DNA of 12,704 nt, taken from assembly GCA_049423385.1 (NCBI GenBank), contig JBMSQQ010000098.1, positions 1-12,704 on the forward strand, written 5' to 3'. Every line of letters starts with the position of its first letter. Within the stretch, counting starts at the first letter, position 1. Shown in pieces: positions 1 through 12,571 of the stretch. This DNA is from Silvanigrellaceae bacterium. GTDB taxonomy: Bacteria > Bdellovibrionota_B > Oligoflexia > Silvanigrellales > Silvanigrellaceae. The notes below the pieces were generated by a model that ran no database searches, was not told the origin of the DNA, and was given only the letters and a program-made list of their open reading frames with translations. A program made the position numbers and the translations under genes.

Positions 1-11
1 CGGGTTGTTGT

Positions 12-161
12 CTAAACGGGCTCTGTAAAGACCACCTGCGGAGATTCGGAGGCCAGCAAATGTTCCGCAGCTGCCGACGGCAGGGTCAGTGGAGCCATGC
101 TGACGCCCAAGACAAAAATCAGGAGAACCAGCAGACGGACTGCGTTGTTCAATGGCCTCAC
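12..161 (-). CDS. Small (49 aa) hydrophobic, signal-peptide-like protein; third gene of the leftward operon
   Basis: Manual translation: GTG (159-161) overlaps the TGA (158-160) of the 613-aa gene as GTGA. A GAGAGG SD-like motif lies ~6 nt upstream. It reads MRPLNNAVRLLVLLIFVLGVSMAPLTLPSAAAEHLLASESPQVVFTEPV and ends at TAG (12-14). Below the ORF-track length cut-off. Confidence 0.5.
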   Translation of the reverse strand: MRPLNNAVRLLVLLIFVLGVSMAPLTLPSAAAEHLLASESPQVVFTEPV

Positions 162-1999
162 AATTGGCCTCTCAGATTGGTCTTGATGAATTCGCGGACA
201 ACGAATTCAAGTTCGGACAGCTGATCATCATAACGGACAAGTTCGGCATTGGTTTGTCCGGATTTCCGGATCTCGAAGGTTGCAGGATCGGGTCGCAGCG
301 ATGCTCTTTCAATCGACCTTTGAAACTCCGCCCTCAGGGATTGTTTCTCTGCTGCATCCGACCGTTCATCGATTTTGCTCAGGATTGTCGAAAGCAGATT
401 GTTTAATTTATATTGGCGCGAATCCACCATGCCGGCGAGTCCGAGACTGTTGGCTTTGCGGTTCCATTCGCGAACCGCGGGTTCAATCATCTGAGTGATC
501 TGACGCGTGAGGGCGGACTTTTCGCTGTCCGACAGATCGTTGTTCAGATCAATGGAGGGAATCAGCACAAGGTGCAGAGCCTTGATTCCGTCAAAGGCCA
601 TTCGGTTTCCGTTGTTCCACTGTGAGCGGAGTCTTGCCTCGATCAGTACCGAAGTGATTTTTTGGGACTGTTCAACGACGGATTCCCTGAATTTAAGCCC
701 GCTGCTGAAGGTGTCCACGCCTGCAATCATGCCGTTGAGTGACTTGATGATTTCACCAAGTCCAATGTGCATGCCGTCTGCCGCCGATTTGCTGATGAGC
801 AGCGAGTTGACCATGACCATTTTTCTGTAATGGTTGCATATGTCGCGCACCAGTGAACCGTTGAGCAGTCCCTCCTGCACGGGGGAGGGTCTGACCTTGC
901 CCAGCAGATTCTCAACTCCGGCCTTCCCTTCATCGTAAAGTGGAATGTTGCCGACCTCGGTGAGTTTTGCGAGGAGCTCGTCCGTCAGAGATTTGAGTTT
1001 ATCCTGAACAACCTTGGCCTCGTCGACAGCGGTCCTGAAATCGTAAACCAGGCATGCCTTCGGCCTGACCACTTCCAGGTTTTCCCGGTTTCTTTCAAGT
1101 TGGACAGCATCCGGAATGCGTTCCGCAAATTGTTTGTTGATTTCGGTTGAAACGGCCTGAACCGGCTCTGCTTCCTGTTTAAGTCGGATAAAAAGACGGA
1201 GAATCTTGTCGTCCGCTTTGCGCATGTCATCTGCAAGCGATTTGACACCTGGATTGTAGACAGACTTGAGCCATGAAGGAAGTTCAGCTTCGGCTTTCTT
1301 CATGCGTGCGTATTTTTTTTCAAGAGCTTCGCGCTCTGCAGTAACCGCTGCAAGTTGCTCCGCCTGAGCAATACGCTGAGGGTCAGCAAGGAGTTTTGCC
1401 TTTTCAGCCTCGATTTCGTCAATCAGTTCCTTGCGGTCGTATCCGTCATTGATATTCTTGCACTCGTAAGGAAATTCCATTCCAACTGCAATTGCGTCCT
1501 GACATGCTCCCTGACACGCCTGAGTGGCCTTGAGAATTTGCTTTCCGGCATAGGAAAGTACGTTCGGAATGCAGGACAAATCGTCACATGCAGGCTTCGA
1601 CGGCGTGCATTTCTTTGCGCAAAACTGATAGTTGTCGACCTTCTCGAGGTAATAGCCGAGCCTGAAATTCGTGGTTCTGACTTCTGCGGCTTGCTGCCTG
1701 CAACTGTCAGCCGTCTCTGCGCCAGGCCTGATGCATGATTTGTCGAGTTTGGCAGGTCCGCAGGTCGGAATTTTCGGATCACCGCCGGTGTACCAGTTAT
1801 ACCAGTTGAGCATCCAAGCATCATTGCCGCCGCTTCCCTTAAACTGGACGTTTACATCGGGTGCATAAATATCGTTGTTCAATGCCGAAGCAGCAACAGA
1901 ATTTTTGATTTTCGGCATTTGAATTTTGCTCTCGTTTCGTCCGCAAGACATTGTTGCGGCAGAGAGAACAATAAGAATTGAGAACATTGTGTTTTTCAT
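158..1999 (-). CDS. Hypothetical lipoprotein, 613 aa: Cys-rich N-terminal domain followed by a long alpha-helical/coiled-coil region
   Basis: Long ORF. The N-terminus MKNTMFSILIVLSAATMS-C is a type II signal with a lipobox-like Cys19. Ten Cys cluster between PTCGP and YECKN. An E/K/A/L-rich heptad-like region follows (ELIDEIEAEKAKLL...REALEKKYARMKKAEAEL). The ATG overlaps the upstream stop (TGATG, 1997-2001). Confidence 0.85.
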   Translation of the reverse strand: MKNTMFSILIVLSAATMSCGRNESKIQMPKIKNSVAASALNNDIYAPDVNVQFKGSGGNDAWMLNWYNWYTGGDPKIPTCGPAKLDKSCIRPGAETADSCRQQAAEVRTTNFRLGYYLEKVDNYQFCAKKCTPSKPACDDLSCIPNVLSYAGKQILKATQACQGACQDAIAVGMEFPYECKNINDGYDRKELIDEIEAEKAKLLADPQRIAQAEQLAAVTAEREALEKKYARMKKAEAELPSWLKSVYNPGVKSLADDMRKADDKILRLFIRLKQEAEPVQAVSTEINKQFAERIPDAVQLERNRENLEVVRPKACLVYDFRTAVDEAKVVQDKLKSLTDELLAKLTEVGNIPLYDEGKAGVENLLGKVRPSPVQEGLLNGSLVRDICNHYRKMVMVNSLLISKSAADGMHIGLGEIIKSLNGMIAGVDTFSSGLKFRESVVEQSQKITSVLIEARLRSQWNNGNRMAFDGIKALHLVLIPSIDLNNDLSDSEKSALTRQITQMIEPAVREWNRKANSLGLAGMVDSRQYKLNNLLSTILSKIDERSDAAEKQSLRAEFQRSIERASLRPDPATFEIRKSGQTNAELVRYDDQLSELEFVVREFIKTNLRGQL

Positions 2000-3198
2000 C
2001 AGGCAGACTCTTTCATTGTCGGGGAGTTCAAGATTTCGATGATTTGCCGGTGAAGCGAGTCGGACACGCCCATCCAGCGTTCAGCTTCGTTTTGAAGAAA
2101 ATTTCGGATGATTTCGAGATCCCTTTGTGCTCGTCTGAGCTGGTTTTCAAACGTCGATTTGATGCTTTCTGAGTTCAGTGAACAGACGGATTCAACAACG
2201 GCGCATTGACTCAGTTCTTCCGCCGTTTCTCTGAGTTCGACGATGTTGTCCTGAACTTCTGCAAGGACAATGCTGAGCTGTTTGATTTTCTCTTCTGAAG
2301 TTTCAGCTGCGATTTGCTTTTTCAGGTCAATTTCCCGCGCGGAAAGATTTCCGACGGTTGACTCCAAGACCATGAGTGTCGAGGTCATGATGTTTTTCAG
2401 AGATTGCCCAGCAGTCATCAGGGTGTCGACAATAAATTTGTAGGCGCTGATCTCGTCTGCAAATTGACCGATGCTCTGCCGCTGACCTTCGAGGTCGGGA
2501 ATGGTGCAAGTGTTTGGGCTCAAGCCAAAAGCTTCATTTTTGCATGTCGGATATATTCTCGACTCCTCTCCGTGCGACGGATGGCGGCAGGTTTCGTAGC
2601 CCACAGTGCATGCGCGATAGCTTTTGACTCCAAGATTGCATTCCCTGAGAACCTCCGTGCCGAAGTCCGGATGTCTGCAGGTCTTGGGCGCCTGTCCCCT
2701 GCATTTTTTTCGTTCCTGAACGGAGACGCCAAATCCGACGCGGTGAACGCGGAATTCGCTCTCGCCTGTCGAAAGCGAAACAGAAATCGGCCCCGAGAAT
2801 CCGTTCATAATTGTCGCGGCGGGACACGATTCATCCCATCCGCTCCAAAATTCTGTCGGCTCCGTGCCGCAGACATCGGATGTGCCGACTCTATAGAGCT
2901 CGGCTCCGCAGTCTGGACTGCGTCCGCGGAAATATTCCGCAACGGGGCATCGGCTGTCCTGTGCCTGAATGGCGCGACACGCAGCCGTTGAAGTTGCGTT
3001 CCACGTTATGGAAGGTTCGCCGCATTGCGGGCCGCTGCCGATGTTTGCCGTTGAGCCGCAAACCATGTCGGTTACTATTTTGGTCCTTAGAAATTTGAAT
3101 GCGTTGGGGTCGGGTTGGTTGTCCTGCGCAAGAGCGGGCAGGACTAGAAAAAGGAGCGGCAAGACTTTGATGGCAATTTTGAAAGTGTTCGGAAACAT
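1999..3198 (-). CDS. Secreted hypothetical protein (399 aa) with a 14-Cys repeat region and a C-terminal coiled-coil domain
   Basis: Start reassigned from 3273 to the ATG at 3198. This gives a clean Sec signal (MFPNTFKIAIKVLPLLFLVLPALA-Q) with GGAG upstream, and the 3273 ATG lies inside the sigma54 motif. Repeats: TCRHPDFGTE, TCRHPSHGEE, TCKNEAFG and RSPDCGAE, TSDVCGTE, GPQCGE. Confidence 0.85.
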   Translation of the reverse strand: MFPNTFKIAIKVLPLLFLVLPALAQDNQPDPNAFKFLRTKIVTDMVCGSTANIGSGPQCGEPSITWNATSTAACRAIQAQDSRCPVAEYFRGRSPDCGAELYRVGTSDVCGTEPTEFWSGWDESCPAATIMNGFSGPISVSLSTGESEFRVHRVGFGVSVQERKKCRGQAPKTCRHPDFGTEVLRECNLGVKSYRACTVGYETCRHPSHGEESRIYPTCKNEAFGLSPNTCTIPDLEGQRQSIGQFADEISAYKFIVDTLMTAGQSLKNIMTSTLMVLESTVGNLSAREIDLKKQIAAETSEEKIKQLSIVLAEVQDNIVELRETAEELSQCAVVESVCSLNSESIKSTFENQLRRAQRDLEIIRNFLQNEAERWMGVSDSLHRQIIEILNSPTMKESA

Positions 3199-3257
3199 GC
3201 TGCTGCGAAACTCCAACTGGTTTTCAGGTCGCCGTAGGCAAACTCGTGGCCGCTTTC

Positions 3258-3272
3258 GCAAGAGCCATGCCA
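3258..3272 (-). promoter_or_regulatory. Sigma54 (RpoN) -24/-12 promoter for the leftward operon
   Basis: Minus strand reads TGGCAT-GGCTC-TTGC. This matches TGGCAC-N5-TTGC with exact GG-N10-GC spacing, ~60 nt upstream of the ATG at 3198 and in the correct orientation. Confidence 0.75.
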
Positions 3273-4108
3273 TGTTGGTATGACAGCCGAACGTTTCGGG
3301 TTCTTCAGGAAACCCGGTGGCCTGCCTGATTGCAGGATCGCAGCATAAAGCAGCGCAATCTCTGAATGTCGGATTTCAGTCAGTGCTGGCCGGAAATCAG
3401 CCAGGGCAATAGACGGTAAATACCGCCGGTGGGCGGACTCAGCACCGAGACGTGCGGCGGTACCATGCTCGATCTTCAGGTGCTGTTTCGGCCTGTGGAA
3501 TGATTCACTGTAACGAAAAAATTTTAATACCTGGTCATTGAGATGGAGACGAGCATACGATTCAAGATATTCCCTCTTGAGGTCCTCCTAAGACAAGGAA
3601 TAAGTCCTTGGCAGCGTTCCCAATGGAGAGACTCGGACACGTCAAATCGGCTATCAAGTTCAGAATCGGTCGGCGGAAAATGATTGCGAAGGAAGGTACG
3701 CCCCGCGAGAAGATTCGCTCCTCTGGCTTTGTGTTTCATGTTCGAGAAGGTCTATTCTCAATGCGTCAGATGACAAGTTTTGCAATTCAAAGGCCTGCCA
3801 ACCGATTCTTTCATTGCGGCTGAGAACTGGCGAATTGACTTTTTAACGCACAACAAACGCAACATAAGCCAAAAAGCATGGATCTGATGTTGTACCTTTT
3901 TGATCAAAGCTTCAGGATTTTTCAACGTTGAAATTGAAAACACTTTTTGTTTTTTATTGCGACCGGCACTTGTCGTGTCGAACAAACACCCTTCGCGCGC
4001 AGCGATTGAAAAAGACGATTGCTTGCAACAGGTTCTAGCTGAAATTCCGGCATAAGCATCAGACAAGCCAACAGGCTCGCATCGGCCATGAAGTCGATTT
4101 AATCAATT

Positions 4109-5536
4109 TCACAAAATAAAATCAAAGAAAAACACCAACGGCAGAGCCAAGGCGAATTTCATTTTTTCATTGCCGTGCGAACCTTCCAGGAGTGTTTCCA
4201 AAGCACCTTTCTCAGAGTCAAACAGTTTTCGCGAGCGGGTGATGCGATCGTTGATATCGGCAAGCATCTCTTCTGCCAGGCCCGGATTGTCCCTGCAGAT
4301 CAGCATCAGCTCGGAATTGAAATTCGCAGAGCGGGGATCAACATTGTACGTGCCAATCACAATGTGCTTTCTATCCACAACCGCACGTTTGGCATGAACT
4401 CCCCAACGCGATGATGCTTCATTGATGGTCAAAAGACGTTCCTTCGGTCTGCTGCCGTCGTACACGCGCAAATCAATCTTTGCCTTCTCCATTCCCGACA
4501 AACTCAACGAAAGAGCAGAAATCGTGTACCAGGCATCGGTCGAGGACAAACTGTTGGTCAAAAAGCGCTGACTCACACCCCGATCAGTCAACTGCTTCAG
4601 CAAATCGATGCCGTCCTTGCGCAGGATAAAATAGGGCGATTCCCCCACGAGCTCCGAGCGAGCCTCGCCAAGAAATTCGGCAAGCCGCTTGAACACCTGT
4701 CGGTTGAAGGCAGACTTTCCAATGTAATCCGTGGCAAAGACAACATCGTTGCAGACGTGCTGTACGGGAGGCTTTTTTCGAGCACCGGCAATATTCTCAA
4801 TCTGGACAATCGTTTCAGCCAGCGCCGGTTCAAGGCTGAAAAAGCGATCATCTCCACTTTGCGCATCCACCGGAAGGCTCGATGAGCGCAATGCAAGATC
4901 GGATTCCCAATAATGCATAAAGCTCTCACGAATCGATTGAGCAACAGGTCCTTCAACCTTCACATCGCTGTCGAGAAAATTGTAGTGCGTTGAAAGGTTG
5001 AAATAGTCGTCTCCAATGTTCCGCCCGCCCGTCATTGCGGATTTACCATCTACGATCAGCAGTTTTCGATGACTCCGGTGTTGCGAACTGACGAACCTGA
5101 ACAGGCTTGCGGTGTTGTAATAGCGGACTTCAATTCCACGTTCCTCGAGACCCCGCGCGTAACCGGGACTCAACTTCAAGACTGCAGGCGAGAAGTCCAC
5201 GAGCAACTTGACCTTGACTCCACGCTTTGCTGCTTCGAAGAGCTTTGATGTCACAATTCGCGCCGACGAGTCGAGTTCATAGATAAAAAATTCAAGCTCA
5301 ATCGATTCTTTTGCGCTGTCGATCATTTCGATGCGCCTTTGCAGACTCGTCAGGCCATCGTTGATCAACTCAATCGTGTGAGGTTGAAGCGAGCGAACAA
5401 AAACAGGATCAGCGCGCATTTCGGGTGGTTTTTCGTGACGTTCTCCCCACCACAGGAACCCTGCCAACGCCCCATAAACAACAATGAACAAACCCAGCAG
5501 AACACCAGCAGTCCATTTGAGCATTTTTCGAAACAT
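4109..5536 (-). CDS. Phospholipase D family protein with two HKD motifs (cardiolipin synthase ClsC/YmdC-like), N-terminally membrane anchored
   Basis: Motifs HRKLLIVDGKSAMTGGRNIGDDY and HAKRAVVDRKHIVIGTYNVDPRSANFNSE; also RIEMIDSAKESIELEFFIY, SPYFI and LTNSLSSTD. N-terminal TM helix WTAGVLLGLFIVVYGALAGFLWW. The start is either ATG 5536 or TTG 5557. Confidence 0.93.
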   Translation of the reverse strand: MFRKMLKWTAGVLLGLFIVVYGALAGFLWWGERHEKPPEMRADPVFVRSLQPHTIELINDGLTSLQRRIEMIDSAKESIELEFFIYELDSSARIVTSKLFEAAKRGVKVKLLVDFSPAVLKLSPGYARGLEERGIEVRYYNTASLFRFVSSQHRSHRKLLIVDGKSAMTGGRNIGDDYFNLSTHYNFLDSDVKVEGPVAQSIRESFMHYWESDLALRSSSLPVDAQSGDDRFFSLEPALAETIVQIENIAGARKKPPVQHVCNDVVFATDYIGKSAFNRQVFKRLAEFLGEARSELVGESPYFILRKDGIDLLKQLTDRGVSQRFLTNSLSSTDAWYTISALSLSLSGMEKAKIDLRVYDGSRPKERLLTINEASSRWGVHAKRAVVDRKHIVIGTYNVDPRSANFNSELMLICRDNPGLAEEMLADINDRITRSRKLFDSEKGALETLLEGSHGNEKMKFALALPLVFFFDFIL

Positions 5537-5546
5537 CCCCCCCCCC
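5537..5546 (-). repeat. Homopolymer G10 tract (C10 on the + strand) directly 5' of the PLD ATG
   Basis: + strand aaacatCCCCCCCCCCttccg; 10 C counted at 5537-5546. Confidence 0.9.
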
Positions 5547-5653
5547 TTCCGAAGCAAACCACTCCGTCCTTGCGATGTTGTGGAGTTCAGAATTGGAAGC
5601 TTACCACGGTCATGGATTCCGCGTATTCAGGAGAAAAGTCAAAAACCATCTCG

Positions 5654-6430
5654 CTACAGAGTCATGCACACATTCAAGTCCGAAAACGCAGTCACGAGGG
5701 GTTGGGAATTCCAATTGCAAGAATAGCTGCACCCACCTCCAGCGCTGTTCAACTTGATTTTTGCAATGTATTCGGAGCAGGCTGCGGAACATCCTTCCCT
5801 CGGAATGGTTGCCGAATTAAAGTTGTTTCCACCAATAAACTTTCCCTCGAAGACGCCAAACTGGGTTTTGACTTCGCAAACGCCAATGGTCGCTGTCGTT
5901 CCTGTGGAGGGATTGGCGGAAGCATTGCCGGCGGGGATGCCTTCAGTGCGTGCAATATTCCCTGAACACACACCCGAGGCTGCACTCGGAGTCAGCAGTG
6001 AAGTCGAGCCAAAATCGCAGCGATAATTGCAGCTCGTAAAACCTTCAGTTCGGATCGCGAGGTTGTTGCATTGCGACACGCATCCGTCGGACGTTTCCAA
6101 CTTGACTGCGGAGGCCTCCGCACGATTAGCAAGCTCTGGATAATTTTCATAGCCAGGCCTGACTTGAATGCCCGAGATGCTCACGGAGCACATCTGTTTT
6201 TGTATAACGGCTTTGGTATCCGTTTGCCCCGTTCCACCCGCAGCGCTTCCTCCGGTGGTGTTCCCCGAGCCGACAGTGGAAACCACGGGACTCGAACCCG
6301 TTTGGCCTTTTGGAGAAACACCACCATTCCGGGTGATTCCTTTGGAAGCATCGCCCAAAGACACCGGCAACGCACAACCGCTCCCGATGCCGAGAAAGAC
6401 GATAGCATAAACGTTTCGAACAAACTTCAT
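5654..6430 (-). CDS. Hypothetical lipoprotein (258 aa) with G/S/T-rich linkers and two tandem six-cysteine modules
   Basis: Signal MKFVRNVYAIVFLGIGSG-C (lipobox-like); GAGGA SD upstream. Modules C-x35-C-x3-C-x12-C-x3-C-x16-C and C-x28-C-x3-C-x15-C-x3-C-x16-C. Confidence 0.85.
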   Translation of the reverse strand: MKFVRNVYAIVFLGIGSGCALPVSLGDASKGITRNGGVSPKGQTGSSPVVSTVGSGNTTGGSAAGGTGQTDTKAVIQKQMCSVSISGIQVRPGYENYPELANRAEASAVKLETSDGCVSQCNNLAIRTEGFTSCNYRCDFGSTSLLTPSAASGVCSGNIARTEGIPAGNASANPSTGTTATIGVCEVKTQFGVFEGKFIGGNNFNSATIPREGCSAACSEYIAKIKLNSAGGGCSYSCNWNSQPLVTAFSDLNVCMTL

Positions 6431-6491
6431 GTTTCATTTCCTCGGGACGAAAACAAGTCTCGGACATTCGAGAAATCGCACAGGCCGAGTT

Positions 6492-6518
6492 TTATCGGCA
6501 AGTCATTAAATTCATTTC
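6492..6518 (-). promoter_or_regulatory. Sigma28 (FliA)-type promoter for 5654..6430
   Basis: Minus strand GAAA-N15-GCCGATAA: perfect -10 element, one mismatch in the -35 TAAA, canonical 15-nt spacer, ~60 nt upstream of the ATG. Confidence 0.65.
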
Positions 6519-6632
6519 AGCGAGGCAGAATATTTGATTTTATATCAATACCTTTGCCACTGGGGTTTTCGGCCCACATGGCGAGACCACAACGCCAATG
6601 CGGCGTTTTTGGCATTAAACGCAACAAACTCC

Positions 6633-6659
6633 TAAAGTTGATGGCTACATCGCCGAAAA
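6633..6659 (+). promoter_or_regulatory. Sigma28 (FliA)-type promoter for 6707..7471
   Basis: TAAA(GTT)-N15-GCCGAAAA: perfect -35 including the extended GTT, one mismatch in the -10, ~47 nt upstream of the ATG at 6707. Confidence 0.72.
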
Positions 6660-6706
6660 CCCTCAAGATGAATCTCTTATTTTCTTCCAACGTAACTGGA
6701 GAAACA

Positions 6707-7471
6707 ATGAGCCTAAGATTGAACTTGATTTTCCTTACTCTCACTTCAATATCGGGAATTGCACTCGCCCAGCGAAATTCTTCAACCAGCCAATTTGCAC
6801 CTCTTGCTGAAGCAAAAAAGAGTGCTGCCGCGCAGACCTCGGCAGTGGCACTCGACGTGCCGACCTTACCGGTTCAAAATTCGCAATCTGGAAGCCAGGA
6901 CCACTCTGCCAATGTAGGCCTTGGGATCGGCATGGGATTTATTCCACACCCGACCGTCAGATTTGACCTGGACCTGCTTTTCAATCAACCGCACGTTCTG
7001 ACGGTTTCGTTTGAAGCCAGCACGTTCAGCAACAATCACTTCATCGCCAAGTCTCTGCTGGTCAACAACTATGAGCGGGACGTCAAACGACGAAGACTCT
7101 CTGTGATGTATCGAAATTCATTTACCTCAAGTCTCTACTACACGTTCGGTCTTGGTTTCGAAAACTACTCGGCCAACCTTCTGGCGCCTGCAACTGAATA
7201 CAGTCAAGATTACAAGTCTGTCGTAACAGGGATTCGGCAAGGCTACACCGTCACGACGGGACTTGGACAGTCGTTTCACAGCGGACCTGTACTATTCCGC
7301 ATTGAATGGGTCGGCTTCTCATTTTTGAGACTTTCAAAAGACATCACGTATTTCAATGCCGACTCGTCGGAGGGAGCAGCAGCAAAATTGGCGGATTCGA
7401 AAGCCAAATTGAAAGCGGACACAGCCGAATCCATTCGCCTCATGAACATCACATTGAGCTACGAATTTTAA
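6707..7471 (+). CDS. Probable outer-membrane beta-barrel protein (254 aa)
   Basis: Start reassigned from 6071 to ATG 6707 (GGAG SD). Sec signal MSLRLNLIFLTLTSISGIALA-Q. Alternating amphipathic strands (NVGLGIGMG, VRFDLDLLF, LYYTFGLGFE, YTVTTGLG, FRIEWVG). The C-terminal ITLSYEF fits a BAM beta-signal. Confidence 0.8.
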   Translation: MSLRLNLIFLTLTSISGIALAQRNSSTSQFAPLAEAKKSAAAQTSAVALDVPTLPVQNSQSGSQDHSANVGLGIGMGFIPHPTVRFDLDLLFNQPHVLTVSFEASTFSNNHFIAKSLLVNNYERDVKRRRLSVMYRNSFTSSLYYTFGLGFENYSANLLAPATEYSQDYKSVVTGIRQGYTVTTGLGQSFHSGPVLFRIEWVGFSFLRLSKDITYFNADSSEGAAAKLADSKAKLKADTAESIRLMNITLSYEF

Positions 7472-7505: not shown

Positions 7506-8603
7506 TTAGCGACAGAGCTGCTGAGCGTTTTTCGAGTCGCGGAATGCACCAATCGCAAACGCAAGCAAGACAATTTTTTCGAGTGACGTAGGCAGCGATA
7601 GATTTGCAGGACCACCAAAAACCGCAGGAATTGTTCTGACAAGATTCACGGAACGCCCAAGGTAACCCTTGACCATGTTTCCATAGTCAATTCGAATGCA
7701 ATTTCCGTTGCATGTGCCGTCTCCAACCGTGGCGTGAGAAATTTTATGGCTGCTGAGACGCTTGGCAATCAGTGCATTGACACCCTTGTCCACGACCCAG
7801 TCGCCGCTCGCAATCTGAAGTGCTCCGGGAGAACTCGTCGGCAATCCGAGTGCCGCACTCAGGCCAATGCTTGCACCCGCCAAACTGGGATCAGGCTTGG
7901 AACGGGCATTGATTGCGGTGAAGAAATTCGCATGAATTGAAAGATAATCGGCCAACACAGGAAGCGAACCCGAGATTCCGGTCGACGCAAACTTCCCCGA
8001 CCAGGCAGCGTGCACGTCGTCGCGCACACCAAATGCAAGACCCAGATAGGAATTCAAACCGGCTCCAACCGAACCCGAACCAAGCACAGCTTCCAACGAA
8101 CGGTATTTGAAGGATGCAACCTGAAAATTGTAGAAGTCCCAGACGTAGTCGATACCCGCAACCCCGTGTATGCCCATCCCTGCCTCGGCACTCGTTCCCA
8201 CAAAAAAATAAGGACGCAAAAGGGAATTTTGTTGAACACGCATGAGTGGTTTCAGGAGTGCACAGGGCTTTTTGTTGATTTCAAGCCAGCGCTGGCGGGC
8301 ACCACGAATGATCCCTGAAAGAAAATTATTTTTTACATGACCAGAATTGTTTTGCGACAATCCAAAGGAGTTTTGCAAAGAACTCTCCTCGTTCAATACT
8401 CCCTCGAAAGCATTTTCAATATTCGTGCTGGCCTCGGACTCAATCTGGTCCGCGGAAGCAACACTCAAATCCTGTGAAGGCTTTGGCTTGCAGGCCGCAA
8501 AAATGAAGCAAATCAGAACCAAAGATGCTCTGGTCCTGACTTCAAACATCAGGGGTGCTTTTTCGTGAAACAATTTCCTCACAGCGTTTGAAACCCTGTT
8601 CAC
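7506..8603 (-). CDS. Hypothetical lipoprotein with Gly/Ala/Ser-rich beta segments
   Basis: Long ORF with lipobox LVLICFIFAA-C-KPK. GTG 8603 overlaps the upstream stop (GTGA). The alternative ATG at 8549 gives a normal-length signal peptide. Confidence 0.8.
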   Translation of the reverse strand: MNRVSNAVRKLFHEKAPLMFEVRTRASLVLICFIFAACKPKPSQDLSVASADQIESEASTNIENAFEGVLNEESSLQNSFGLSQNNSGHVKNNFLSGIIRGARQRWLEINKKPCALLKPLMRVQQNSLLRPYFFVGTSAEAGMGIHGVAGIDYVWDFYNFQVASFKYRSLEAVLGSGSVGAGLNSYLGLAFGVRDDVHAAWSGKFASTGISGSLPVLADYLSIHANFFTAINARSKPDPSLAGASIGLSAALGLPTSSPGALQIASGDWVVDKGVNALIAKRLSSHKISHATVGDGTCNGNCIRIDYGNMVKGYLGRSVNLVRTIPAVFGGPANLSLPTSLEKIVLLAFAIGAFRDSKNAQQLCR

Positions 8604-9235
8604 CGATCAAGGCAACTTGAAAGTTCGGCGTTGGTTCGAACTTGGCCAATCCATCTCTTGGCGACGCTTTCGGGAACCCTGTCTGAGAAAATCTGGGGCT
8701 GAAGTTGCTGGGAAATCTCTGCAAAGCGAAGGTACTGTGAATTTTCCCCGCAACCTAGAATATCTGCAAAAGCCCTCAGGTGATCCCCATCACCCTGTGC
8801 TGATTCCTTTGCGAGACTTTCCAGATTCACAGCCACGAAGGTGGCTTGCTCCTTCAACATTGCATCCTCATCATCTGGAATATCGTTGCAATTCGAAATT
8901 CCCGAGACGATTGAACTTGACTGTGCCGAGCTTGGCCCGGACAAGAAGAAACCGAATGGCGAACCACCAATAGCAACAGTTCCTCCACCAGCAACAACAA
9001 CAACGGATGATGCCACTGAAACGCCGAGATCAGTGCCACCGGCAATGGATAGTTGTGTACCCATGGAATTGTCTTTGGGGTTGAAAACAAGAGTTCCCAA
9101 TCCACACCCACCCATTCCATAGTTTGGCAGTCGGTAGCGGCGCTCTCCTTGGTCTGAAGAACGCCTGGATTTTGCATGAGCTGAAAAAGAAAAAAGGAAA
9201 GAAACACAGAGGCCAAGACACAATTTCATTTTCAT
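8600..9235 (-). CDS. DUF3015-family secreted protein (divergent paralogue with a hydrophobic insertion)
   Basis: Signal ending FSAHA. Motifs YGMGGCGLGTLVF, SGISNC and FVAVNLESLAKESAQGDGDHLRAFADILGC are typical of DUF3015 (recognised from memory). ATGA overlap with the upstream paralogue. Confidence 0.82.
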   Translation of the reverse strand: MKMKLCLGLCVSFLFSFSAHAKSRRSSDQGERRYRLPNYGMGGCGLGTLVFNPKDNSMGTQLSIAGGTDLGVSVASSVVVVAGGGTVAIGGSPFGFFLSGPSSAQSSSIVSGISNCNDIPDDEDAMLKEQATFVAVNLESLAKESAQGDGDHLRAFADILGCGENSQYLRFAEISQQLQPQIFSDRVPESVAKRWIGQVRTNAELSSCLDR

Positions 9236-9747
9236 TGAACAACTCCGGTTTGACTATCCCTTGAGACAAGAACGCAGTCTTTTGCCAAATCTTTGTTTAG
9301 CAGCATCGAGTCCTTCAATTGATCAAGTGCAGCCACAGCACCTGGAGAGGAAAAGATGGCACTGTATTCCTTTTGCGAGTGCGACTTGAAAGCAGGCAAC
9401 TGCTTGTCCCCGCAACCGAGCAAATGCGACAAAGCTTCGAGGGAGGCCCCCTCTCCGCGAGCCATTTCCTTGCTCAATTGCTCATAATTGGCAAACATGA
9501 ACCTTTCCTGTTCAACACTCGCTTCGTCTCCGCGGTCGGGTCTGCAATTTGAAGTCCCCGAGGTGAGCCCCAGATATTTGGACCAGAACGTCCCATTCGT
9601 TGTTGCTGCAGACATTTGACTCCCTTGCCGGCTCATCACGGCAGAACCCATGCCACACCCGGCCATGCCATAGCGCCTGCCTGCGGATGCAAGGGAAGGA
9701 ACGGTTGCCACGGCAACACCGCCCAATACGAGGATCCATTTCAACAT
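9232..9747 (-). CDS. DUF3015-family secreted protein
   Basis: Start reassigned to ATG 9747 (GGAGG 7 nt upstream; signal MLKWILVLGGVAVATVPSLASA). Motifs YGMAGCGMGS, AATTNGT, GLTSGTSNC and FMFANYEQLSKEMARGEGASLEALSHLLGC. Confidence 0.88.
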   Translation of the reverse strand: MLKWILVLGGVAVATVPSLASAGRRYGMAGCGMGSAVMSRQGSQMSAATTNGTFWSKYLGLTSGTSNCRPDRGDEASVEQERFMFANYEQLSKEMARGEGASLEALSHLLGCGDKQLPAFKSHSQKEYSAIFSSPGAVAALDQLKDSMLLNKDLAKDCVLVSRDSQTGVVQ

Positions 9748-9814
9748 AAAAATGCCTCCACAAAAGAAAGAATCACCTGTTGAAAATTCCACCACATGAA
9801 GTCTTCAACAACGT

Positions 9815-11713: not shown

Positions 11714-11749
11714 AAAAAGAGAATCCGCAAACCAGTCGCGGAGTCGGTG

Positions 11750-12571
11750 ATGTTGAAATTCATCCTGGGTGGCTCCATGACTCCTGACACAATCAAAAAA
11801 TTTTCATTTGCAGTGCATCGGACACTTTTACAGCTGTTCTGGTTGTTTTTGAGTGTTGGAATTTCAACTCAGGCGATTGCTGAAATCGCCATCCCCAATC
11901 TTTCATCACCCGTCATCGATGACGCTGGCTTTTTTTCAACAATTGAAAAACAGAGCCTCGAGCGGGATATCCGCGCATTGTTTGAAGCACAGGGCCCACA
12001 GTTGCAAGTCTGGACGTTTCCCACTTCGGAAGGTGAACCAATCGAAAGTCTTTCACTGCGAGCCGTTGATGCATGGAAATTGGGGCGGCCTGGAAAAGAC
12101 GATGGACTGCTGCTGACAATCTCACGCACAGAAAGAAGATTCCGGCTTGAAGTTGGTCGCGGACTCGAGGGCGTCATTCCTGATATTGTGGCGTCGCGAA
12201 TGTTGAGAAACTTTTTGGTTCCAGCACTCAGAAAATCGCAGGCCGCTTTTGGGGTTTCCAGCGTGATTGATGAAATCGCGCGGTTGACCCTCCCTGATGG
12301 TGGAAAAGATTTCGAAGGCAAGGTCATCAAACAACGTCCAGTCCGAAAACGTTCGCTTTTTGATCTGATCGTGTTTTTTTTGTTCATGGGCATATTTGTG
12401 ATTCTCTCCATTGTTTCGTCTCTCAAAAGAGGACGGCGCGGCTTTGGCAGAAGCTACTACGGTGGCGGATGGTCGGGTGGCGGACGCTGGGGCGGCGGAG
12501 GAGGAGGCGGTGGAGGGTGGTCGGGTGGCGGCGGAGGATTCTCGGGTGGTGGCTCGAGCGGTGGTTGGTGA
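11750..12571 (+). CDS. TPM-domain (DUF477/YgcG-like) membrane protein with a Gly-rich C-terminal tail
   Basis: Motifs VIDDAGFFS, WKLGRPGKDDGLLLTIS and RLEVGRGLEGVIPD; TM helix LFDLIVFFLFMGIFVILSIV; tail GGGWSGGGGGFSGGGSSGGW. Start uncertain (11747, 11750 or 11777). Confidence 0.93.
   Translation: MLKFILGGSMTPDTIKKFSFAVHRTLLQLFWLFLSVGISTQAIAEIAIPNLSSPVIDDAGFFSTIEKQSLERDIRALFEAQGPQLQVWTFPTSEGEPIESLSLRAVDAWKLGRPGKDDGLLLTISRTERRFRLEVGRGLEGVIPDIVASRMLRNFLVPALRKSQAAFGVSSVIDEIARLTLPDGGKDFEGKVIKQRPVRKRSLFDLIVFFLFMGIFVILSIVSSLKRGRRGFGRSYYGGGWSGGGRWGGGGGGGGGWSGGGGGFSGGGSSGGW

Follow-up and report, generated by a model that had tools for sequence, protein, structure and literature searches.

A secreted protein of a Silvanigrellaceae bacterium with a two-armed, 14-cysteine module that probably forms an out-and-back stalk stapled by nested disulfides

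The 12,704-nucleotide stretch of DNA analysed here (the window; positions 1 to 12,704 of contig JBMSQQ010000098.1 in assembly GCA_049423385.1, from a Silvanigrellaceae bacterium) carries on its minus strand a gene for a 399-amino-acid (aa) secreted protein, called the stalk protein below, in which residues 47–231 contain 14 cysteines arranged as two arms of seven separated by a Cys-free tip. We propose that these residues form a single undescribed extracytoplasmic domain, in which the chain would run outward through one arm, turn in the tip and come back through the other, with the two arms held together by seven nested disulfides, and we put the probability of this explanation as a whole at about 0.72; its structural part, for which the computations described below provide the grounds, seems to us about as probable. 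What computation gave directly is the anatomy of the protein, the family to which its module belongs, the way in which the two arms co-vary, and a confident structural model that has no known neighbours. The work followed up a reading of the letters of this DNA by a model without database searches (the original prediction), which had noticed the mirror-symmetric cysteine array and had suggested that it folds as a long antiparallel ribbon with a loop at its end.

Residue numbers are counted from the Met codon at 3198. A longer frame that begins at the ATG at 3273 (open reading frame (ORF) 1999..3273, minus strand) would add 25 residues, but since within the 90% cluster of orthologue P0004 a length of 399 aa is called for four of the five proteins (and 424 aa for the fifth), comparison with these relatives makes Met 3198 the likely start; the remaining orthologue representatives are 383–399 aa long. 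After a predicted Sec signal peptide the protein consists of arm 1, the tip, arm 2 and a C-terminal helical domain, and the coordinates of these parts are given in Table 1. In the full-length AlphaFold2 model the predicted local distance difference test score (pLDDT) is below 50 over residues 1–32, and the C-terminal part is a set of long helices that span residues 236–261, 267–298, 302–334, 343–375, 380–390 and 393–398. Two cysteines that the original prediction did not list, Cys332 and Cys339, lie in this C-terminal part and form a probable local disulfide. The wider relatives have four Cys in their C-terminal helical domain.

The cysteine array itself is exactly as first described. Translation places the module cysteines at residues 47, 59, 74, 84, 97, 110 and 125 and at residues 166, 174, 187, 197, 204, 219 and 231, the array extends from the first letter of the Cys47 codon at 3060 to the last letter of the Cys231 codon at 2506 (its claimed limits), the central Cys-free segment is 40 residues long (126–165), the unit strings that had been quoted, including KTCRHPDFGTE, are all found in the translation, and the residue numbers of outside-in pairs sum to 278, 278, 278, 281, 284, 284 and 291 as claimed. 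The 185 residues from 47 to 231 hold 14 Cys, whereas the remaining 189 of the mature chain hold two. The near-constant index sums are mostly a consequence of the ~13-residue period that is common to both arms. The claimed spacings are also right, as successive cysteines of arm 1 are separated by gaps of 12, 15, 10, 13, 13 and 15 and those of arm 2, taken in reverse order, by gaps of 12, 15, 7, 10, 13 and 8, and the mirroring of such irregular gaps exceeds what the common period explains, both in this protein and in other subfamilies.

Both arms are built on one unit motif with the cysteine in complementary positions, a claim that holds across the whole family. The arm 1 Cys occupies the place of Phe/His in arm 2 units, the arm 2 Cys stands five residues upstream of the place that Cys holds in arm 1 units, and the arm 1 place that matches the arm 2 Cys is usually filled by a small residue. 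The layout of the family is a number (n) of ~13-residue units with the core C-G-V-E-x-Y, a tip, the same number of units with the core C-R-H-P-x-F-G-V-E-x-Y, and one closing Cys; the number of pairs (rungs) ranges from 5 to 9 in relatives, and by an automated rule their tips span 9–128 residues and hold 0–8 extra Cys. Word-index homologue searches gave few proteins (4 and 10), and exhaustive and genome searches were more productive: phmmer, with 1.84 billion cluster representatives as its target, gave 28 matching proteins at E ≤ 0.001, of which 11 pass 1e-10 and 4 pass 1e-30. By a profile search (E ≤ 1e-5) the module is present in 49 of the 131 genomes of this class and in 22 of its 55 genera; these genomes include five of the 12 others of the same genus, and the window's own genome (90.6% complete) has a single copy. 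Among named records, relatives occur in metagenome-assembled genomes (MAGs) that bear the titles Proteobacteria bacterium (86% identity), uncultured Silvanigrella sp. and Bacteriovoracaceae bacterium, and a relative at 31% identity (E 1e-11) is encoded by Sorangium cellulosum So ce26, whose genome is complete. All 16 Cys (the 14 of the module plus 332 and 339) are invariant in four of four orthologues of 92, 85, 60 and 46% identity. Mean identity among orthologues is 82% in each arm, with 43 of 79 positions invariant in arm 1 and 42 of 66 in arm 2, and 55% in the tip, where seven of 40 positions are invariant; in the helical part it is 66%.

Loss of cysteines in relatives was followed in a plain MAFFT alignment of 19 sequences (alignment A2) that was not fitted to any structure. 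Six of its 14 Cys columns vary, and they do so strictly as nested partners: Cys84 and Cys197 are jointly missing in six of the 19 sequences (Phe and Gly are in their places in two of these), Cys74 and Cys204 in one, and Cys125 and Cys166 in one, and no sequence is discordant for any of these three pairs. Of the other possible pairings, the 21 that include a variable column all show one or more discordant sequences, and the 25 between Cys kept in all 19 sequences are uninformative. The check on homologues that the original prediction had proposed, namely whether Cys and units are gained or lost in matched positions of both arms while the tip varies, thus came out in its favour, and this covariation supports the nested out-and-back pairing of the seven candidate disulfides, though directly for three of them only. 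The same domain might instead pair its cysteines neighbour to neighbour within an arm, giving a one-way repeat array or a globule in which the mirror is a by-product of the period, and indeed one period in both arms would by itself yield near-constant index sums. We consider local pairing of this kind very improbable, since Cys84 and Cys197, which are lost together, lie 113 residues apart and their joint loss would leave Cys74 and Cys204 unpaired, since arms of 5 or 7 Cys are odd and cannot pair internally, and since the irregular gaps are mirrored.

The numbers and spacings of cysteines across the family were compared in 48 clusters (60% identity) with module limits set by an automated rule. 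Module Cys counts range from 10 to 18 and are even in 45 of the 48; of the three odd clusters, one is a contig-truncated ORF and in two the first unit was missed by the rule because of a 20-residue gap. In 29 clusters both arms have a longest regularly spaced Cys run of the same length (3|3 to 6|6), a number that none of 20,000 shuffles reached (mean 9.6, maximum 22). When gap differences were summed over the clusters, the mirror order gave 682, the parallel order 876 and shuffled orders 857 ± 26, and none of 20,000 shuffles was as low as the mirror order. Since the central gaps are irregular anyway, the mirror test was repeated after the two gaps nearest the tip had been dropped from either arm, which gave 153 against 190.6 ± 12.3 (40 of 20,000 shuffles as low). 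Examples of mirrored gaps that look independent of one another are 13,15,15|13,15,15 in L031, 13,13,23|13,13,20 in L005, 12,13,12|9,13,9, and 12,15,10|12,15,7 in the stalk protein itself. An equal-arm split made by hand of 60 module strings, in which every complete string fits with 0–6 tip Cys, was given no weight, as the calling of tip Cys is too free.

In four clusters only 13–15 residues join arms of ~50 residues each, and therefore only an antiparallel return is possible there and a parallel arrangement is excluded. Matched arm counts and mirrored gaps would fit equally well if the arms paired between two molecules, as an antiparallel or domain-swapped dimer or a polymer with intermolecular disulfides that builds a fibre or lattice, and the C-terminal helices could oligomerise. 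The 13–15-residue tips, together with confident models of the monomer, favour an intramolecular turn, however, and we regard pairing between molecules as very improbable.

The structure model of the module is non-globular and compatible with an out-and-back chain. The full-length AlphaFold2 model, made from a 19-row alignment, has a mean pLDDT of 76 and a predicted template modelling score (pTM) of 0.44, with 82–96 for the module outside the tip. The module was modelled alone because a full-length VIA structure search was filled by generic helical hairpins over residues 264–340 (Z no higher than 10.8, where about 13 is recommended for helices), which we set aside. The model of residues 33–240 alone, from a 33-row alignment, has a mean pLDDT of 92.4 and a pTM of 0.54 and is almost entirely beta. 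Secondary structure assignment by DSSP (Dictionary of Secondary Structure of Proteins) gives each 13-residue unit a strand, a 3-residue helical turn and a second strand, the turn falling on "P-x-C" or "P-x-F/H" before the Gly. The long antiparallel hairpin of the original prediction is thus backed by a non-globular, nearly all-beta model and by the co-variation of the arms, but with a short helical turn in every unit the model does not show its ribbon to be straight.

Arm 1 (residues 36–130) and arm 2 (160–238) were also co-folded as two separate chains, using purpose-made alignments; the chains are halves of one protein. The score was 0.43, whereas the best of three controls scored 0.00, at least 93% of contacts agreed among the runs, and the partner pLDDT was at least 87. 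The arms were confident only together (pLDDT 86–90 versus 33–61 with unrelated partners), which counts against local pairing, if weakly at such a score. In the calibration of this method 116 of 157 solved complexes attained the mark, as did two of 215 mismatched pairs, and with scores of 0.60 or less it was attained by only 18 of the 157 and by both of the passing mismatches, so the predicted association lends the pairing of the arms weak support.

Several observations weigh against the out-and-back stapled stalk. The pTM values are only 0.54 for the module and 0.44 for the full-length protein, and the co-folding pass is weak by the calibration just given. Direct covariation touches just three of the seven rungs, the six sequences without Cys84 and Cys197 come from perhaps three lineages and so amount to few events, and repeats can be misaligned; kinship among sequences inflates all of the pairing statistics, and independent events are few. 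The equal-run rule failed in 19 of the 48 clusters, including the stalk protein's own (7 versus 3), where it fails because arm 2 has irregular spacing with 7–10-residue gaps. A second counting rule, which uses landmarks, found equal arms in only 15 of the 48 clusters, as local pairing would allow, and 70 of 20,000 shuffles did as well; this rule performs poorly, as it does not cope with "C-P" units, with upstream Cys or with units that are degenerate. The mirror test on the full set was aided by the trivially irregular gaps near the centre. The case for the disulfides is made from covariation and context, and no neighbour, domain or paper among those surveyed ties the module to a process. With these reservations the analysis supports the overall interpretation of the original prediction, and none of the outcomes that it had named as contrary to it (neighbouring disulfides or a globular fold, uncorrelated Cys counts in the two arms, or a full match to a described Pfam repeat of different topology) was encountered.

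The arrangement that we infer for the disulfides, the rod shape and the function is as follows. The chain would proceed outward through seven ~13-residue units of type A (Cys-Gly-x-Glu-x-Tyr), turn in the 40-residue variable tip, and return through seven units of type B (Cys-Arg-His-Pro-x-Phe/His-Gly-x-Glu-x-Tyr), so that unit i of arm 1 lies against unit 8 − i of arm 2. Each A/B pair would contribute one disulfide, giving the series 47–231, 59–219, 74–204, 84–197, 97–187, 110–174 and 125–166. The outcome would be a rigid, non-globular stalk whose two chain ends come together at its base beside the helical domain and whose length is set by the number of rungs. Acting as a spacer, it would keep the tip at a fixed distance, either within the envelope or outside the cell; in other architectures the element so held would be an adjoining domain.

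Disulfide formation in the envelope is plausible in this organism, since its genome is well supplied with envelope thiol-oxidation genes, namely DsbB beside a DsbA-type frame, a VKOR and a DsbA-type match within one 464-aa frame, and further DsbA/Thioredoxin_4 frames (Table 1). Were the Cys and His of the units to bind metal instead, in zinc-like sites along the arms, the frequent C-x-H-x-x-H pattern of arm 2 units and the sub-threshold Pfam zinc-ribbon matches in two relatives (E 0.023 and 0.033) would find an explanation. The His residues are not conserved, however (H, N, D, S, L or A occurs at position 3, and F alternates with H at position 6), each 13-residue stretch has a single Cys and CxxC is absent, the proteins bear signal peptides or lipoboxes, the genome has DsbB, VKOR and several DsbA-type frames, and the Cys counts are even in nearly all clusters; we therefore hold metal binding to be highly improbable and retain the disulfide-stapled stalk.

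The module occurs in more than one architecture. It stands N-terminal to a helical domain, as here and often in a lipoprotein, or on the C-terminal side of other domains, of which there are two kinds or more. In P0017, P0033, P0036 and the protein at L050:64-1890 (+) it follows a domain of ~350 residues, with an extra C-x6-C pair just before the module. The Sorangium cellulosum So ce26 protein (L049:1771-3753 (+)) has a 16-Cys module after a different N-terminal domain, which it has in common with P0022, P0025 and P0030, and the module is followed by a Pro-rich linker and then a hydrophobic C-terminal tail, which we take to look like a myxobacterial C-terminal sorting signal. Three module genes lie in tandem on one strand at L053:1-4895, each encoding a large N-terminal domain and a C-terminal module, and there are likewise tandem module genes at G075:C58 and G051:C172.

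Such fusions bear on what the stalk is for. A targeting domain at the C-terminus is common among pore formers. Several relatives have the module at the C-terminal end of other domains, and in one of these, P0017 (from a MAG titled Bdellovibrio sp.), the ~350-residue domain resembles PDB entry 9uj0_A, "Aeg-L" (E 7.3e-5), described in a review as a pore-making protein of the fungus Alternaria (PMC13341504). The structure proposed above could therefore be kept and its job be binding: the Tyr, Glu, His and Arg faces of the arms would bind a polymer (cell wall, lipopolysaccharide or another glycan) and so target the fused domains. The arms are more conserved than the tip, but such conservation is equally expected of a structural core, no similarity to any known binding repeat was found in our searches, and a rung number of 5–9 fits a role in length. 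A binding role of the arm surfaces is compatible with the stalk structure, and we think it possible but rather unlikely. With the spacer role, a bolder suggestion is that the module is a length-programmable "ruler" of a new fold class: each A/B pair would add one rung, evolution would need only to add or delete such pairs to adjust how far the tip, or an effector fused to the module (the pore-former-like domain, for instance), extends, and Bdellovibrionota and myxobacteria would use it to place surface or secreted proteins at a set distance from the envelope, here on a lipoprotein partner. We offer this generalisation as a speculative one that may well prove wrong.

The original prediction did not recognise the module as a named family, and the searches bear this out. 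The stalk protein matches no family in Pfam or NCBIfam at E ≤ 0.01. Among 23 relatives (E ≤ 0.1), no Pfam model scores above its cut-off over the module and no NCBIfam model scores above its cut-off at all; the only Pfam match above cut-off is PEGA in P0027, over residues 35–96 and outside the module. Galaxin-like repeats (PF24748), which resemble the module in being tandem repeats with Cys, were considered and rejected, as two of the 23 relatives score 16.9 and 17.3 bits (E 0.006 and 0.0047) against a cut-off of 28 bits, and the stalk protein and the other 21 relatives have no match to that model. PHROGs gave no match for four proteins, and a profile search against all PDB sequences had a best E of 0.36.

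Fold comparisons gave a similar picture. A neighbour over most of the module was sought at Z of about 8 or more or at a Foldseek E ≤ 0.001. In the structure search with the module model the best Z was 3.3 (61 residues aligned at a root-mean-square deviation (rmsd) of 3.5) and none of 48,161 representative chains reached Z ≥ 5, whereas models without a clear match usually still reach Z 7–8. Foldseek with the same model gave best E values of 0.26 against PDB and 0.16 against the viral models of BFVD, and with the full-length model no match at E ≤ 0.001. The weak Foldseek rows of the module model are elongated beta assemblies superposed at rmsd above 50 Å, which fits a very elongated model but is no measure of elongation. 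Rods by their nature score low in fold searches, and low Z values and weak E values alone are no proof of a new fold. Look-alikes of residues 36–238 in the ESM Atlas reached a feature score of 0.83 at best (the level for a lead is 0.9) and a template modelling score of 0.38 at best. In the open literature on Cys-rich proteins of Bdellovibrio and Silvanigrella and on disulfide ladders, we found no description of such a domain.

By analogy with proteins known from general background, the nearest known principle appears to be the cystine ladder of small beta-hairpin peptides. Theta-defensins, tachyplesins and protegrins are antiparallel hairpins with nested parallel disulfide rungs, the arrangement proposed for the module, but they have ~17–18 residues and two or three rungs a few residues apart, whereas here a domain of ~185 residues would have seven rungs (5–9 in relatives), a structured 13-residue unit between rungs, two complementary repeat types and a 40-residue tip, within multidomain envelope proteins. 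Such peptides are small, free, cationic and antimicrobial; the module is a 185-residue domain in a 399-aa protein with a helical C-terminal domain, and no sequence relation to these peptides was found. The granulin/epithelin module, like the proposed stalk, is a rod, made of stacked beta-hairpins that a disulfide ladder holds in place, but its disulfides link Cys that are near in sequence on a one-way chain and not the halves of a chain that runs out and back. The TNFR cysteine-rich domains and laminin-type EGF repeats of eukaryotic receptors and matrix proteins resemble the proposed stalk in being extracellular rods of tandem modules that regularly spaced disulfides stiffen, and differ in that their disulfides lie within each module of a one-way chain, whereas here they would join units distant in sequence whose numbers change together in the two arms. 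The bovine ultralong heavy-chain complementarity-determining region 3 (CDR-H3), with its "stalk and knob", projects a variable element from a base domain on a two-stranded stalk, as the module would; its disulfides are in the knob, whereas the module would have them in the stalk, and the tip of this protein has no Cys. Beta-helices of the insect antifreeze type are uninterrupted arrays of identical repeats with an internal disulfide in each. A Cys-repeat beta-helix made as a single run was rejected for the module, which has two types of unit that place their single Cys differently, a tip between them and numbers of units that co-vary.

If the pairing is as proposed, two complementary 13-residue units would offer a modular route to a stiff, probably protease-resistant rod of chosen length, and we found no curated family, solved structure or paper that describes the module. 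Its recurrence in more than a third of the genomes of one class and in a myxobacterium, fused to several kinds of domain, probably means that it serves some general need in the architecture of envelope proteins in these groups, which are partly predatory. As a scaffold for protein engineering it would provide a tunable stalk with a replaceable tip, and its interest lies mainly in structural biology and protein design.

The gene most closely tied to the stalk gene is the one directly downstream, which encodes a predicted lipoprotein of 613 aa whose Cys-rich N-terminal part is of a different kind (Table 1). Its ATG overlaps the stop codon of the stalk gene (TGATG), and homologues are found in three of 61 related genomes (G000, G007 and G019), in each of which they adjoin the stalk protein orthologue; conversely, the lipoprotein gene is adjacent in all three of the genomes with a full-length orthologue. 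The helical base of the stalk probably docks on the lipoprotein encoded by this translationally coupled gene. The lipoprotein has no family match in the databases searched. It is not a paralogue of the stalk protein by BLASTP (best E between the two 1.5), and a divergent helical neighbour of paralogue L006, tried as a relative of the lipoprotein, was also rejected (best E 1.4).

Table 1. Positions of the stalk protein gene, of the parts of its product and of other genes in the window, with the thiol-oxidation genes elsewhere in the genome
Feature	Position	Strand	Remarks
Stalk protein gene	1999..3198	-	399 aa, secreted; start Met 3198, stop codon 1999-2001
Predicted Sec signal peptide, residues 1-25	3124..3198	-	Basic start, hydrophobic run, A-L-A then Q-D; read by eye from the translation
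Arm 1, residues 47-125	2824..3060	-	Seven Cys; ~13-residue units, Cys then Gly ("C-G-x-E-x-Y" type)
Tip, residues 126-165	2704..2823	-	Cys-free 40-residue insert; modelled as lower-confidence beta strands
Arm 2, residues 166-231	2506..2703	-	Seven Cys; units of "C-R-H-P-x-[F/H]-G-x-E" type
C-terminal helical domain, residues 236-399	2002..2493	-	AlphaFold2 full-length model, pLDDT 55-91 by block
Cys332 and Cys339	2182..2205	-	Turn between two helices of the C-terminal domain; invariant in orthologues
Downstream predicted lipoprotein gene	158..1999	-	613 aa; about a dozen Cys in first 190 residues, long helical remainder
PLD-type protein (PLD-like enzyme)	4109-5557		
ORF overlapping the next on the opposite strand	5654-6430	-	258 aa; no family match
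ORF overlapping the preceding on the opposite strand	6071-7471	+	466 aa; no family match
Two overlapping tandem DUF3015 protein genes	8600-9795	-	E 6e-16 and 9e-34
GDSL lipase resembling Legionella PlaA	10011-11072		Match below cut-off
TPM-domain protein	11747-12571		
Envelope thiol-oxidation genes	G000 contigs C17, C25, C42, C5, C39, C100, C48		

A scan of positions 1..4200 for promoters and terminators gave no more sites than are found in shuffled sequence. The PLD-like, DUF3015 (two genes), GDSL lipase and TPM-domain genes of the window have no functional link to the stalk protein that we could find. For the two opposite ORFs at 5654-6430 and 6071-7471, it is likely that at most one is real over the region where they overlap. 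Genomes of the same genus also contain a subfamily of lipoprotein paralogues of the stalk protein (L004-L007 and L015-L018), which was not found in the window's own genome at its 90.6% completeness; it is present in five of the 12 other genomes of the genus, and its modules have a 6|6 Cys pattern from which the fourth rung has been lost in both arms.

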